Assembly (NCBI GenBank): GCA_965223865.1
Contig: OZ245020.1
Location: 320,001-384,000 of the forward strand
DNA length: 64,000 nucleotides
Reading direction: 5' to 3'
Source of the DNA: Nitrosarchaeum sp.
GTDB taxonomy: Archaea > Thermoproteota > Nitrososphaeria > Nitrososphaerales > Nitrosopumilaceae
A program made the translations under genes and the position numbers. The notes beneath the pieces were generated by a model. It had not been told where the DNA came from, ran no database searches, and worked only from the letters and a program-made list of their open reading frames with translations. Numbering within the stretch: the first letter of the stretch is position 1; each line of letters begins with the position of its first letter. Shown one piece after another: positions 23,319-26,539 of the stretch.

Positions 23319-23786
23319 ATGTTTGATAAATTCAAAAAAGAGGATGGAGAAATGGTAGAAGAAATGAAAGAAGAGTCAAATGTTGAGTCAGAGCCATCTA
23401 CATCTACAGAATCATCAAGTGAGATCGGAATTGGTAATCTAATGGATAAGCGTGCCAAATTAGAAGAGGCGATAGATTATGTTGGATTAATGATTAAGAA
23501 TCTTAAGGACAAGAGAACAAATCTAGAAAAAGAGATTGAAGAAGAGTCAGTAGATATTAAAAATCTCAAAGAAAAACTTCAAAAAGTAAGTGAGTATATT
23601 GAGGAGGAAAATCAAGGAATTAAACAATTAGCAAATAAGAGAAATCAAGTCGAAAAAGAGGCTGACGAGGTAGGTTCTATAATCAATAGTCTGAGGGATA
23701 GATTATCTGGAATTGATAGAATAATTGACAATGAAGGTAATAGAGTTAAAAAAATTAAGGAATCCAGAGAATCCCTAGAAAGGTAA
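23319..23786 (+). CDS. Coiled-coil hypothetical protein
   Basis: Heptad-rich E/K/L sequence; convergent with the ESCRT-III gene. Confidence 0.75.
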   Translation: MFDKFKKEDGEMVEEMKEESNVESEPSTSTESSSEIGIGNLMDKRAKLEEAIDYVGLMIKNLKDKRTNLEKEIEEESVDIKNLKEKLQKVSEYIEEENQGIKQLANKRNQVEKEADEVGSIINSLRDRLSGIDRIIDNEGNRVKKIKESRESLER

Positions 23787-23789
23787 AAT

Positions 23790-24437
23790 TTAGTAAAATT
23801 TTGAAGAATTTGTAGTTGTTGCGTGTGCATCAGCAGGCACTGAAGGGAACATTTGGCCAGTTGAACTCTCTGCAACAGCTGCTGCTTCTTGAAGAATTTT
23901 ATCAGATTCGGAGTTTGTTGAATCATCTATTCCAAATGATCCTTCACTTGAGAAACTATCAGTCATGAATCCTCCTAGCATTTCTGCCATTTGGCTGATT
24001 TCTTGGTCAGCTCCAGGCATGAATTTTGCCAGTGATGATTTTAGATTTTTCATCAAGCCCAGTGTAGGCATGATGGTTACAACAGTATCTCCAAGATCAT
24101 GATATGTTGTTAATCTCAATTCAATTTGTTCTAAGGCAATTCTTGCATTACCTAAAATTTTTAACACTTTTCTTACTTCAGCTAATTCTTTTGATAAGAC
24201 TCTGCTTGTACTTACATCATGTGATTGAGTAGCCTCGACAATTCTCTGGAAAAGCTTCCCATCTCTCTCTTTTAATTTGGTAATCATTGAATCTAGTTTA
24301 GCAATTTGAGTTTGTAATCGCTTAATTCCACTTTGAACTTTAGGTTTTAATGGACCCTTTGGTTTAATAGCATCATTAATCTTATCACCAATTCCTGGTT
24401 GATATTGCTTTGTCCATTTATTTTGGAAGTTTGGCAA
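23790..24437 (-). CDS. cdvB: ESCRT-III / CdvB paralogue (Snf7 family)
   Basis: ELAEVRK...ALEQIELRLTT...GD and SDKILQEAAAVAE, typical of archaeal CdvB paralogues. Confidence 0.85.
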   Translation of the reverse strand: MPNFQNKWTKQYQPGIGDKINDAIKPKGPLKPKVQSGIKRLQTQIAKLDSMITKLKERDGKLFQRIVEATQSHDVSTSRVLSKELAEVRKVLKILGNARIALEQIELRLTTYHDLGDTVVTIMPTLGLMKNLKSSLAKFMPGADQEISQMAEMLGGFMTDSFSSEGSFGIDDSTNSESDKILQEAAAVAESSTGQMFPSVPADAHATTTNSSKFY

Positions 24438-24998: not shown

Positions 24999-25442
24999 TT
25001 GGATTTTTTGTTGAATAAAAAAATTGTAATTATACCCATCATAATTCTGGCTATTAGTTTAGTAATTCTTTCTTCTTCTAATGATAATGAGAAAATTGAC
25101 AAAACCATTTTTCATGTAACATTGGCAGATCCTAAAATGTATCACGAAGGGATATTTTCCGATGTTTTTTCGGTAGAAGCAGGAAAATATTTTTTTAGAT
25201 TTGTTCCAAATGGAGACAGCCCTAAATCTCTATCAATTTCATTAAAAGGAGAAAATTTTGATTTTAATGAAAATTTCAAATTAAATGGCACATCACATGA
25301 AACGGGTATTTCACAATATTATACTTGGGATTATGATGGACAAAAAGAAATTAACATTTTTGAATCTCAAGATGTTATTATTCAAATCAATCCAAATGGA
25401 AATTATTTGGGAACCGTATCAGTTGATATTATAGAAAATTAA
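24999..25442 (+). CDS. Hypothetical N-terminally anchored beta-rich protein
   Basis: Hydrophobic N-terminus; FHVTLADP and FVPNGDSP segments. Confidence 0.7.
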   Translation: MDFLLNKKIVIIPIIILAISLVILSSSNDNEKIDKTIFHVTLADPKMYHEGIFSDVFSVEAGKYFFRFVPNGDSPKSLSISLKGENFDFNENFKLNGTSHETGISQYYTWDYDGQKEINIFESQDVIIQINPNGNYLGTVSVDIIEN

Positions 25443-25575
25443 GAAAGGCGCAAACCCCTTAAACTGCAGAACTCTGAGAGATTTCCTCTCGTTGTCAGGT
25501 CGTCATTACGCCTGATTGCCTTTTTCGTTCTGCGGGGCCACGCAGTTTTAGTCGATGAGATTTGTATCCATCGGC
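25441..25575. ncRNA. Candidate ~135-nt structured RNA with alternative/pseudoknot pairings, family unknown
   Basis: GC-rich island with several complementary segments; TATA-like TTAAATA about 25-30 nt upstream on the minus strand. Confidence 0.5.
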
Positions 25576-25795
25576 ATTAATTTCTATAGGAAGTTTAACT
25601 ATTTAACATTTAGTATAAAAAATTATAAAAAAAATCTAGTTTTATAAGAAAATTTATGACTTAATTTGTAATTGTTTATCATTGACAAAAAAAATTCCGA
25701 AGATTTGAAAAATTAGATTTTGTAATTTAGTAAAAGTGAGAGTTTGGTAAAAAAAATCACTGATCTATAAATTACGACCTTGATGAAAAAAGCAG

Positions 25796-26539
25796 GTGAG
25801 TCTTTCAGGCAAGGTTGCTTTGGTAACTGGTGGGAGTAGGGGTATTGGGTTTTCTACCGCAAAGATATTTTCAGAAAATGGTGCTAGTGTTGTTATCACA
25901 TCCAAGGATTCTTCTAGACTTGAAAATTCGGTACAAAATCTATCCAATACTATAGGATTGGCAGCTGATATTAGAAATGAAAATAGTGTAAGAAAAGTAG
26001 TAGAGAAAACAGTAGAGATTTTTGGAAAAATAGATATTTTAGTAAATAATGCTGGAATATTTCCGAAAATAAAGCCATTACATGAAATTGATGAATCTGA
26101 ATGGCAAGAAATTTTAGATGTAAATCTTACAGGACAATTTAGATTTACTAAAGCTTCTATTCCCTATTTGAAAAAAACTTCAGGTTCAATAATTAATATT
26201 TCATCAGATGCAGGTTTAAAGGCATATGAGGGGTTTAATGCAGATGCATATTCTGCCTCCAAAGCAGCATTAATCATACTTACAAAATGTTGGGCATTAG
26301 AATATGCAAAAAATAAGATTCGAGTTAATTGTATTTGTCCAGGGGTAGTTGATACTGATATGACAAAACCATTTTTGAAGACCAATAAAGATAGAGAATT
26401 TATGGACAATGAACATCCAATTGGACGAATTGGTAAGCCGGAGGAAGTAGCCAAAGCAATCTTGTATTTTGCCTCAGATGATGCAGCATGGACTACAGGC
26501 GCGGTGTTAACAGTTGATGGAGGAGAATCTATCAAGTAA
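25796..26539 (+). CDS. Short-chain dehydrogenase/reductase (FabG-like)
   Basis: TGGSRGIG, NNAG, YSASK and VDGG motifs. Confidence 0.93.
   Translation: MSLSGKVALVTGGSRGIGFSTAKIFSENGASVVITSKDSSRLENSVQNLSNTIGLAADIRNENSVRKVVEKTVEIFGKIDILVNNAGIFPKIKPLHEIDESEWQEILDVNLTGQFRFTKASIPYLKKTSGSIINISSDAGLKAYEGFNADAYSASKAALIILTKCWALEYAKNKIRVNCICPGVVDTDMTKPFLKTNKDREFMDNEHPIGRIGKPEEVAKAILYFASDDAAWTTGAVLTVDGGESIK

Follow-up and report, generated by a model that had tools for sequence, protein, structure and literature searches.

A conserved structured small RNA with a 5' micro-ORF in a family of ammonia-oxidising archaea

Analysis of a 64-kb window (the whole stretch of Nitrosarchaeum sp. DNA that was analysed) showed that positions 25434-25577 very probably hold a real minus-strand gene for a structured small RNA. 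The product is a stand-alone small RNA with its own promoter, it belongs to a family absent from Rfam, and covariance-model matches place it in nearly all genomes of a single family of ammonia-oxidising archaea, the clade of the host. The features of the locus are as in Table 1.

Table 1. Features of the small-RNA locus and of the adjoining convergent gene (window positions)
Feature	Position	Strand	Basis or remark
Whole small RNA, ~140 nt	25434..25577	-	Inferred ends: 5' from TATA spacing, 3' within T-tract
Archaeal TATA box TTAAATAG	25599..25606	-	Ends 21 nt before ATG
Leaderless micro-ORF, ATG + 8 codons + TAA (MPMDTNLID, stop)	25548..25577	-	Frame conservation
P0, 5' hairpin inside micro-ORF (CGATG/CATCG)	25553..25573	-	Covariation
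P1, 5' strand GCGUGGCCCC	25534..25543	-	Begins 4 nt past stop codon
P1, 3' strand	25448..25458	-	Covariation with P1 5' strand
P2, 5' strand GCAGAAC	25527..25533	-	Covariation
P2, 3' strand GUUCUGC	25466..25472	-	Covariation
Hinge, 5-7-nt purine-rich bulge, 3' strand between P2 and P1	25459..25465	-	Alignments
J2/3, A-rich junction strand GAAAAAGGCAA	25516..25526	-	Complementary to last two P1 bases and 3' tail
P3, variable hairpin of three-way junction (TCAGG..CCTGA)	25495..25515	-	Covariation
P4, near-invariant hairpin GAGAG-GAAAU-CUCUC, GAGG core	25476..25490	-	Covariation
3' tail and T-tract, presumed terminator	25434..25447	-	Overlaps last codons and stop of convergent gene
Convergent gene, 147-aa protein, N-terminal hydrophobic segment	24999..25442	+	ORF; membrane protein of no assigned family

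Transcription unit and conserved fold

The two covariance models matched the minus strand at window positions 25435-25579 (G000:C1:345435-345579) with 150.7 and 141 bits. A GC-rich block in AT-rich intergenic DNA had been noticed here in a first-pass annotation, and the GC content was indeed 0.50 across 25450-25549 against 0.15-0.26 in the flanking intergenic DNA. The block is bounded by the stop codon of ORF 24999-25442 (+) on one side and by the start codon of ORF 25796-26539 (+) on the other. The minus-strand TTAAATA box and T-rich end noticed at the same time were both present and both conserved. TTAAATA(G/C) formed an invariant column in a 21-sequence flank alignment, the same box preceded all three paralogues in the host's own genome, and TTAAATA-type or ATAAATA-type 8-mers stood at a spacing of 21 in 55 of 63 distinct metagenome copies. 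The conserved TATA box at fixed spacing and the T-tract end, found in all paralogues and in widely differing gene contexts, bear out the earlier proposal of independent transcription. At long ORFs of the host genome, TATA-like heptamers peaked at -32 to -27 relative to the ATG, which is the geometry of the small RNA. Its TATA-to-ATG spacing equals that of the leaderless genes of this genome, and its AUG stands where leaderless mRNAs start. Contigs of 87 and 119 nt covering only 25462-25557 were present in two metatranscriptome runs of one study (X1 and X2) with the flanking genes uncovered, a weak hint of expression given as contigs only and with DNA carry-over possible. Two runs of uncertain kind (X3 and X4) were left out of the expression evidence.

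The fold consists of hairpin P0, a 10-bp P1 that a variable hinge connects to a 7-bp P2, and then P3 and P4 at a three-way junction; its support was drawn from 56 genomic and 80 metagenomic homologues. Single-sequence folding gave z = -3.66 for the plus strand and -2.29 for the minus strand. Among the 55 distinct homologues, 92.2% of cells were paired compared to 82.4% in shuffles (0 of 500 reached the observed value), pairing fell to only 31-48% of cells when partners were slid, and changes on both sides were seen at 27 of 34 pairs. The 72 distinct metagenome copies again showed more pairing than shuffles (96.5% vs 91.0%; 0 of 500 reached it), so that the proposed conserved structured RNA is upheld by covariation in both sets. 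In addition, P1, P2 and P4 were recovered by RNAalifold from a structure-blind MAFFT alignment. In P1-P4 of the homologues, G.U cells numbered 81 against 11 A.C cells, and the strand is therefore the minus strand; the earlier remark that wobble pairs do not settle the strand does not survive the comparison of homologues.

P1 was paired in 97.4% of cells with 7 of 10 pairs changed on both sides, and its G.U pairs swap with A-U, G-C and U-A. P2 was paired in 96.6% of cells and every one of its seven pairs was changed on both sides in some sequence, the sequence being otherwise near-invariant. For P3, 91.4% of cells were paired and both-side changes occurred at 7/7 pairs, while for P4 (97.6% of cells paired) one pair swaps A-U for G-C in 4 rows and the loop reads G-N-A-A-U. 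The hinge varies in both sequence and length. The three-way junction is closed by 17 bp and its junction strands are 11, 4 and 3 nt long. P0 was paired in 90-93% of cells of the 72 distinct metagenome copies, with AU/UA/UG exchanges at two pairs, and in 67-78% in the more diverse genomic set, where its register shifts between paralogue types.

All complementary segments listed in the first-pass annotation were literally present in the DNA. Among the helices that it had described as mutually exclusive, GCAGAAC/GTTCTGC corresponds to the covarying P2, and AAACTGC/GCAGTTT and CTGCG/CGCAG came without covariation. AAACTGC/GCAGTTT was rejected as a helix, with 65.7% of cells paired compared to 64.6% in shuffles (159 of 500 reached it) and its five outer pairs broken in 6-15 of 21 sequences. 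CTGCG/CGCAG is uninformative because 90.5% of its cells pair yet no both-side change was seen. The earlier idea of competing helices leans on these two, which covariation does not back. Of the two pairings read as crossing, AAAGGC/GCCTTT does cross the other helices; CCCC/GGGG turned out to be nested, continuous with P2 and the inner part of P1.

The crossing pairing would join the A-rich junction strand J2/3 (J) to the 3' tail and has two bases in common with the base of P1. Matched variants were found on the two sides (AAAGGC/GCCUUU, AAUGGC/GCCAUU, AGAGGC/GCCUCU, AAGUGG/CCACUU and AUGGCGU/ACGCCAU), and the mean duplex energy was -5.13 kcal/mol compared to -4.42 +/- 0.17 with permuted partners, a value reached by 0 of 2000 permutations. 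The column test for this pairing was weak (71.5% vs 68.2%, reached by 22 of 500 shuffles) and the pairing fades in the most divergent copies.

Distribution and the convergent gene

Model R1 matched 22 of 23 genomes of the family and none of 127 genomes from 19 sister families, and model R2 matched 23 of 24 and none of 16 from other families. Each genome holds 1-3 paralogues of the RNA. At least 120 metagenome contigs carried the exact core, with R2 confirming 80 of the 80 fetched, and a search of viral contigs with a 22-base core pattern gave no matches. The main copy lies tail-to-tail with the gene of the 147-aa membrane protein, and the 3' end of the model was overlapped or abutted by a downstream convergent ORF at 29 of 56 loci. 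The remaining loci had unrelated downstream neighbours on either strand, and a CorA gene that follows in the same orientation stands ~90 nt off with a TATA-like box of its own. Secondary copies were found between unrelated genes, namely Fur/AsnC, EPSP synthase/chorismate synthase and Tyw1/CorA.

The 147-aa protein had no match in Pfam, NCBIfam or PDB sequences. The protein was present in 22 of the 24 family genomes and in none of 16 outside the family, and a comparison of coordinates put its gene and the RNA no more than ~110 nt apart in 20 of 23 genomes holding both. The only RNA copy lies away from this gene in three genomes (G007, G011 and G012), as do the second and third paralogues elsewhere, and G015, with three copies of the RNA, gave no match to the protein. 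The tight linkage could instead indicate a cis or antisense role, which is weighed below.

The micro-ORF at the 5' end

Of the 56 genomic copies, 54 had an ATG at an identical position of the model, followed by a frame of 9 codons in 50 and of 8 codons in 4, and the distance from the stop to P1 was 3-4 nt in almost every copy. The stop codon was TAA in 43, TGA in 6 and TAG in 5 genomic copies, although URR at this position is statistically inseparable from a conserved U-purine-purine motif, UGG being expected less than one time. Stops inside frames 0, +1 and +2 were found in 0, 25 and 9 of 36 distinct ORFs, and in 0, 49 and 17 of the 63 distinct metagenome copies with an ATG. The ATG was absent in about 5 of 73 metagenome copies. 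Wherever it is lost, among genomic and metagenome copies alike, reading of the sequences showed an in-frame GTG or TTG at the ATG site or one codon after it. No ATG start was found at the 5S, RNase P and SRP RNA genes of the same genome. The 3-nt indels in the frame may be one single event.

The peptide is not conserved, because the entropy by codon position was 1.01/1.29/1.21. P0 begins ~5 nt after the AUG, and a hairpin so near would hinder leaderless initiation. Overall, it is somewhat probable that the micro-ORF is under selection or engaged by ribosomes. The reading of the locus as non-coding holds in part: about 110 nt covary, and the first 30 nt show frame-type conservation with an 8-9-codon leaderless ORF. 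A signal of this kind had been set against a structured RNA in the first-pass annotation, but it is limited to the 5' end.

Continuation of the frame into the structure was also considered. No extended frame is conserved, since in this copy a further stop is reached in 13 codons or fewer and paralogues have spacers that differ in length by 1 nt, and readthrough or frameshifting from the micro-ORF stop into the structure was rejected on inspection. An ORF starting past the GAGG of P4 was likewise rejected, as an AUG is found there in few lineages only.

Known RNA classes, rival explanations and possible function

Rfam 15 (4227 covariance models) at gathering thresholds gave no match in the window, and at E ≤ 10 the segment 25380-25680 gave three chance-level hits only, with bit scores far from threshold for snR58 (17.3/70), Entero_OriR (13.6/80) and IS605-orfB-I (12.7/94.2). 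Among 20 homologous loci, none of the RNA sites was matched, and the sole match was a tRNA elsewhere in one locus (L041). The proposed Rfam comparison thus returned no known family for the locus, the window or its homologues. A search of literature on ammonia-oxidising archaea found no description of such a small RNA. The available portion of PMC5069720 deals with euryarchaeal Tan1, RNase P and SRP RNAs; its main text, as far as available, names no thaumarchaeal ncRNA, and its thaumarchaeal TSS tables could list this RNA. Such an RNA is not mentioned in the available portions of PMC12379486, PMC13475601 and PMC13248708.

The locus had been judged by eye to match neither tRNA, 5S, SRP nor RNase P RNA, and this agreed with the searches. 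For tRNA, which would show a cloverleaf with an anticodon arm, ARAGORN called 0 genes in the window, RF00005 gave no hit at the locus and covariation supports a three-way junction. The 5S, RNase P and SRP RNA models (RF00001, RF00373 and RF01857) scored above cut-offs elsewhere in the genome (C1:59254-59373, C1:1697181-1697459 and C1:235214-235525, respectively) and gave nothing here. Archaeal C/D sRNAs have a 5' box C (RUGAUGA), a 3' box D (CUGA) and a K-turn, are ~50-70 nt long and carry guides adjoining D/D'. On inspection, the present RNA was ~140 nt long with a 5' end of UAAUGCC or UGAUGYC and without a 3'-terminal CUGA, and the sole C/D-type Rfam hit was the one with 17.3 bits against a 70-bit threshold. 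Archaeal H/ACA RNAs are built on a pseudouridylation-pocket hairpin with a K-turn or K-loop and an ACA box right past the lower stem; the alignment showed no ACA after P0, P2 or P1, and a three-way junction in place of a pocket hairpin. No Rfam model of the known self-cleaving ribozymes (hammerhead, twister, twister-sister, hatchet, pistol and HDV-like) matched either strand at E ≤ 10, and inspection of the junction strands for a hammerhead-type junction showed no CUGANGA/GAAA core. A cis-acting riboswitch, in which aptamer and expression platform precede co-oriented regulated genes in a consistent gene association, was rejected with the downstream neighbour convergent at 29/56 loci and unrelated genes on either strand elsewhere.

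Likeness to several known systems was seen. The screen of Klein, Misulovin and Eddy in 2002 reportedly yielded the Hgc RNAs of Methanocaldococcus from GC-rich islands in an AT-rich genome. The present RNA shares with them the GC-rich island in AT-rich intergenic DNA, an archaeal promoter, a stable conserved fold and a function unassigned at discovery. The Hgc families are included in Rfam, whereas the present RNA has no Rfam match, belongs to another host clade and is set apart by its junction-to-tail pairing and 5' micro-ORF. Dual-function sRNAs such as the bacterial SgrS/SgrT and RNAIII/hld also carry a short conserved frame and a conserved RNA structure on a single small transcript, and small-protein-encoding sRNAs have been reported in Methanosarcina. 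However, those RNAs encode a conserved functional peptide, while here the frame is conserved only in being present, in its length and in staying open, and at 8-9 residues it is far shorter.

A tiny ORF whose peptide sequence matters little is shared with trpL-type attenuation, erm/cat leaders and eukaryotic uORFs. As in leader-peptide attenuators, a ribosome on the frame would overlap the lower end of a helix with a competing partner, the two being P1 and the J-tail pairing in this RNA. A conserved frame was present, and P1 base and J-tail pairing share two bases, with moderate support for the latter. Main locus and most paralogues differ from attenuators in having no same-strand regulated gene, with no co-oriented gene downstream in the main locus, and the transcript ends directly past the structure. 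Finally, flaviviral exonuclease-resistant RNAs and ENE-type triple helices, which protect a transcript's end, likewise capture a terminal single strand by long-range pairing, and a three-way junction is also part of the likeness; in the present RNA, the U-rich 3' tail would be held by the A-rich junction strand. Topology and sequence differ, with a U-rich tail in Watson-Crick pairing here versus poly(A) in a triple helix.

The best explanation overall, with about an even chance of being right, is a stand-alone structured small RNA with a micro-ORF that would bind a factor and have its fold toggled by translation. A purely non-coding, trans-acting sRNA that would contact mRNAs by base pairing through a single-stranded stretch, for instance the P0-P1 segment, the P4 loop or J, is unlikely. 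This reading would fit the own promoter and terminator, the multiple copies with paralogues in unrelated contexts, the lack of peptide conservation and the covariation of P0 across the supposed coding stretch, and it takes the AUG and URR as promoter-proximal or structural motifs that mimic a frame. However, a long conserved single-stranded seed was not seen; variation affects the hinge and the loops of P0 and P3, and conservation is highest in the helices P2 and P4. Frame 0 was moreover open in every ATG-bearing copy, genomic as well as the 63 distinct metagenome ones, with the other frames often closed, and the genome's other ncRNA genes lack an ATG. The opposite reading, in which the 8-9-residue peptide is the product of a tiny mRNA and the structured domain its stabilising 3' UTR, is the least probable of the alternatives: the frame is leaderless in geometry, of conserved length and always open, but the peptide differs between paralogues and genera without a third-position excess of variation, and conservation is much stronger in the ~110-nt 'UTR' than in the frame.

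It is improbable that the RNA represents a new class that senses a ligand like a riboswitch or cleaves itself, with the J-tail pseudoknot and the three-way junction as its active core. Such a reading would suit a compact core that forms a pseudoknot and is strongly conserved, with invariant nucleotides at the junction and close by; the family is moreover near-universal in the clade, and no known class matches. Against this, a consistent same-strand downstream gene was missing (29/56 loci are convergent and the rest vary), conservation lies mostly in the helices and less in the junction loops, and the Rfam ribozyme and riboswitch models gave nothing at E ≤ 10. Equally improbable is a cis or antisense element for the convergent gene, with termination, stability or expression controlled by the RNA itself or, in the form of a 3' UTR, by its complement. 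The small RNA overlaps the 3' end of the 147-aa gene and could therefore control that mRNA: its terminator covers the stop codon at 29/56 loci, RNA and gene have the same phyletic pattern and are adjacent in 20/23 genomes holding both by coordinates, the plus strand folds well too (z = -3.66), and the complement of J is a T5 run that could terminate a plus-strand mRNA. The ratio of 81 G.U to 11 A.C cells nevertheless favours the minus strand. Second and third paralogues and the sole copies of G007, G011 and G012 lie away from the gene, and the three copies of G015 exist with no match to the protein. Synteny in streamlined genomes is often retained without functional coupling.

For the stand-alone small RNA with a micro-ORF, the proposed mechanism is as follows. 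The structured RNA would act in trans and bind a factor, for which a protein is more likely than a small ligand because sequence conservation in P2, in P4 and in some of the junction goes beyond pairing. Binding of a factor is probable, the evidence being sequence invariance within the helices. The J-tail pairing would tuck the U-rich 3' end into the fold, and the RNA would thereby be stabilised. A ribosome would start at the 5'-terminal AUG, stop 3-4 nt before P1 and open the P1 base; the two bases thus freed are those for which J competes, so that translation could toggle the fold. This combination of a ribosome-toggled switch and a bound factor is put forward tentatively and is more doubtful than the general explanation. 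A translation-sensing riboregulator, in which the terminating ribosome is the 'ligand' that flips the RNA between the closed form and the form where J captures the 3' tail, is rather unlikely. The flip would alter the stability of the RNA or its hold on a conserved partner.

The ammonia-oxidising archaea of the host family are among the most numerous cells of the sea and drive marine nitrification, and to our knowledge almost nothing is known of RNA-based regulation in them. The ~136 aligned members, two covariance models and strong covariation make a ready-made new RNA family that annotation pipelines could adopt. The leaderless micro-ORF directly before a large helix offers a simple test of the coupling of translation and RNA folding in archaea, and the pairing with an equally clade-restricted 147-aa membrane-protein gene is a second lead. 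We know of no leader-peptide attenuation of this kind described in archaea. If true, the riboregulator would be the first leader-peptide-type switch in archaea, and the switch would act on a stand-alone RNA instead of a downstream gene, in a host among the ocean's most abundant microbial groups.

Strand and fold of the RNA

The RNA locus lies in a GC-rich island (25445-25580; GC of 0.50 at 25450-25549 compared with 0.15-0.26 in the surrounding intergenic DNA), as the first-pass annotation had described, and all of the complementary segments that it listed were present in the sequence. Folding of the single sequence against shuffles gave z-scores of -3.66 for the plus strand and -2.29 for the minus strand. 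Both strands fold better than shuffles, so the strand was undecided from single-sequence folding alone. Wobble pairs had been thought unable to settle it; however, those of the homologues did. Helices P1-P4 contained 81 G.U cells (pair positions × sequences) on the minus strand against 11 A.C cells (the counterpart of plus-strand G.U), and the strand was thus assigned as minus. Alignment of the copies and their flanks in this orientation showed a TTAAATA(G/C) box that was invariant at a fixed upstream distance and common to all three paralogues of the window's own genome, while a T-rich stretch was found downstream of the fold in every copy, which bears out the minus-strand box and T-rich 3' end seen earlier. 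Of 63 distinct metagenome copies, 55 place the box 21 nt ahead of the ATG.

Homologues were collected and tested for covariation, as had been advised, and the fold was paired beyond shuffles in both the genomic and the metagenome set. RNAalifold recovered P1, P2 and P4 from a structure-blind MAFFT alignment with compensatory change in 8 of 23 pairs. In the 56-sequence alignment, which is model-fitted and leans towards the structure, 92.2% of the cells were paired compared with 82.4% in shuffles (0/500 reached the observed value), slid partners paired in 31-48% of cells and both-sided changes were found at 27 of 34 pairs. The 72 distinct metagenome copies, whose P4 and P2 3' strand were fixed by the search pattern and so could not vary, were 96.5% paired compared with 91.0% in shuffles (0/500). 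P0 was well supported in this set, being paired at 90-93% and showing AU/UA exchanges. We regard the existence of the gene, its minus-strand orientation and its fold as shown.

Features of the RNA locus, its surroundings and further copies
Feature	Position	Strand	Remarks
TATA box	25606-25599	minus	ends 21 nt ahead of ATG 25577-25575
P0	25573-25553	minus	5' hairpin
P1	25543-25534 with 25458-25448	minus	10 bp
P2	25533-25527 with 25472-25466	minus	7 bp, uninterrupted with P1 on 5' strand
J2/3 (J)	25526-25516	minus	11-nt A-rich junction strand
P3	25515-25495	minus	variable hairpin, three-way junction
P4	25490-25476	minus	near-invariant hairpin, three-way junction
Hinge	25465-25459	minus	variable 5-7-nt bulge, parts P2 from P1 on 3' strand
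Tail	25447-25434	minus	3' tail and T-tract
147-aa protein gene	24999-25442	plus	tail-to-tail with main RNA copy; island begins beyond its stop codon
Short-chain dehydrogenase gene	25796-26539	plus	Pfam adh_short_C2, E = 8.5e-70; island ends before its start
215-aa ORF	23790-24437	minus	sub-threshold Snf7 (ESCRT-III/CdvB-like) match
Acidic ORF	23319-23786	plus	coiled-coil-looking
Second RNA copy, own genome	C1:152553-152694 (L002 1472-1613)	minus	same TATA box; 9-codon frame MSLGILDFK-stop
Third RNA copy, own genome	C1:1777314-1777445 (L052 1501-1632)	minus	divergent; TATA box and 9-codon frame MEKSANFNE-stop kept
RNA copy of genome G007	L037 1440-1520	minus	sole copy of that genome

The remaining helices of the first-pass annotation fared unequally. 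AAACTGC/GCAGTTT showed no covariation (65.7% paired compared with 64.6% in shuffles) and was dropped. CTGCG/CGCAG was paired in 90.5% of cells with no both-sided change, and could be an intermediate of folding or have no significance. The CCCC/GGGG pairing forms part of P1, and is nested rather than crossing. AAAGGC/GCCTTT does cross: J2/3 is complementary to the last two P1 bases and the tail, across P1 and P2, with the matched variants AAUGGC/GCCAUU, AGAGGC/GCCUCU, AAGUGG/CCACUU and AUGGCGU/ACGCCAU. The mean duplex energy was -5.13 kcal/mol compared with -4.42 ± 0.17 for permuted partners (0/2000 reached the observed value) and -2.80 kcal/mol for shuffled J. The plain column test was weak (22/500 shuffles reached the observed value) and the pairing weakens in the most divergent copies. 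Overall, the complementarity is established, and from this sequence comparison the J-tail pairing is probably real. Since it overlaps the base of P1 by two bases, either native P1 is two pairs shorter in a static pseudoknot enabled by the hinge, or the P1 base and the J-tail pairing alternate.

Distribution and known RNA classes

A BLASTN search located the stretch in 15 of the family's 24 other genomes, as well as a second copy inside the window's own genome; 16 genomes from other families of the order gave no match. With Infernal's stricter filters, covariance model R1 (derived from 21 sequences) scored matches in 22 of 23 family genomes, and 127 genomes spanning 19 sister families gave none. 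Model R2 (derived from 56 aligned matches) detected the RNA in 23 of 24 family genomes and in none of 16 genomes from other families, and the sole family genome without a match (G009) was 0.8 Mb. Copy number was one to three per genome, with three in the window's own. The third of these retains P1 (11 bp) and still ends in CGCC; its interior differs, with no clear P2. An exact 22-base core pattern was found in at least 120 metagenome contigs and no viral contigs, and R2 confirmed all 80 of those fetched.

Two metatranscriptome runs of one study contained contigs measuring 87 nt (81 of these identical to window sequence) and 119 nt, which covered 25462-25557 only and left the flanking genes bare. 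They reveal neither strand nor ends, and weakly hint at an abundant small transcript. One 119-nt contig per run maps to 25513-25557 plus a second copy of 25513-25542, a doubling that may be an assembly artefact or a paralogue mix.

The Rfam check suggested earlier matched no family: at gathering thresholds Rfam 15 gave nothing across the 64-kb window, three chance-level matches at the locus at E ≤ 10 (all E ≥ 2, far under thresholds) and none at the RNA sites of 20 homologous loci. The earlier judgement by eye against tRNA, 5S, SRP and RNase P RNA was upheld, as ARAGORN found no tRNA and the genome's own 5S rRNA, RNase P RNA and SRP RNA genes were located elsewhere above cut-offs. By inspection, there was no C/D box pair, no ACA box behind any stem and no hammerhead core. 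The RNA could be assigned to none of the families considered. No description of it was found in the literature searched, which lay largely outside the subscription journals.

The micro-ORF

The ATG and a T 27 nt further on were invariant in the 21-sequence alignment. An ATG-initiated frame was present in 54 of 56 genomic copies (nine codons in 50, eight in four), ending in TAA (43), TGA (6) or TAG (5), and the other two read as in-frame GTG or TTG. The 63 distinct metagenome copies comprised 57 nine-codon frames, five eight-codon frames and one reading through. Among 73 metagenome copies with full upstream sequence, five were without the ATG and read as TTG one codon later (four) or GTG at its site (one). 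In 59 of the 63, 3 or 4 nt separate the stop from the first GCG, where P1 starts; in some genomic copies this gap reaches 7 nt. Interruptions in frames 0, +1 and +2 numbered 0, 25 and 9 in 36 distinct nine-codon versions, and 0, 49 and 17 in the 63 metagenome copies. The genome's 5S, RNase P and SRP RNA genes have no ATG at their start. The frame is conserved, and on balance this putative coding frame seems to be under selection. A URR at the stop was statistically indistinguishable from a U-purine-purine motif, and P0 begins about 5 nt past the AUG and would hinder initiation.

In this genome, the ATGs of long ORFs are preceded by a cluster of TATA-like heptamers at positions -32 to -27 (83 of 1358 ORFs, compared with at most 8 per position elsewhere). 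From this sharp peak many of its genes appear to be leaderless, and the box of the RNA, starting at -29, falls within that geometry.

Competing explanations and proposed working

The locus is very probably a real small-RNA gene. P2 and P4 are conserved both in sequence and in pairing, and a long conserved single-stranded stretch is missing, so we infer a structured RNA recognised by a factor in preference to a simple antisense regulator; a plain base-pairing sRNA is unlikely, and a new riboswitch or ribozyme class, into which a conserved fold might also fit, is quite improbable. A micro-peptide mRNA would explain the uninterrupted frame and is highly improbable: the peptide is unconserved (MPKDIIPID, MRKDANPID, MSLVTKSNE, MQKRANSNK) and third codon positions show no excess of variation (entropy by codon position 1.01/1.29/1.21).

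An element acting on the convergent gene in cis or as antisense would suit the tail-to-tail arrangement, found in 29 of 56 loci, in which the T-tract overlaps the last codons of the 147-aa gene. This protein combines a hydrophobic segment at the N terminus with a conserved domain at the C terminus (G62, F68, P70, W110 and Y112 are among the residues invariant in 18 homologues), had no relative in sequence searches of Pfam, NCBIfam or PDB, and shares the distribution of the RNA (present in 22 of the 24 family genomes and in none of 16 genomes of other families). By coordinate comparison it adjoins the RNA in 20 of 23 genomes having both, a linkage that may be functional or mere conserved synteny. 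On the divergent side, the neighbour is the dehydrogenase gene in 21 of 56 loci. Other copies lie amid unrelated genes. The second copy has a Fur-family gene on one side and, on the other, a small gene whose product carries an AsnC-type ligand-binding domain. The third is convergent with EPSP synthase across a gap of 17 nt and divergent from chorismate synthase, an arrangement shared with three other genomes. Further copies adjoin Tyw1 and CorA, the latter with a TATA-like box of its own where downstream on the same strand. The RNA is therefore an independent gene, and the cis or antisense explanation is improbable.

In genome G007 the RNA lies apart from the 147-aa gene, and a PAPS-reductase-domain gene follows about 1-20 nt downstream on the same strand. 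So short a gap cannot hold a second promoter, and transcription may therefore run through the T6 tract and cover both. Elsewhere in the window, the Snf7 match of the 215-aa ORF (26.1 bits, narrowly below the Pfam threshold of 27.3; E = 8e-6) stands beside the acidic ORF.

In the proposed working of the factor-recognised RNA, the J-tail pairing would fold the U-rich 3' end back into the junction, thereby shielding it. A ribosome terminating 3-4 nt ahead of P1 would cover and open the first P1 pairs, and the bases freed would be exactly those for which J competes; translation could thus toggle the fold, a mechanism that we regard as possible though rather doubtful. P4 has a GAGG core paired with CUCUC; the 16S rRNA of this genome has a CCUCC-type end, and its ORFs show a modest excess of GGAG/GAGG-type motifs 8-15 nt upstream. 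This is a lead only. The closest likeness, in proposed working, is a leader-peptide or uORF device, here joined to an orphan structured RNA. The RNA is an orphan archaeal structured sRNA that carries a conserved leaderless micro-ORF.
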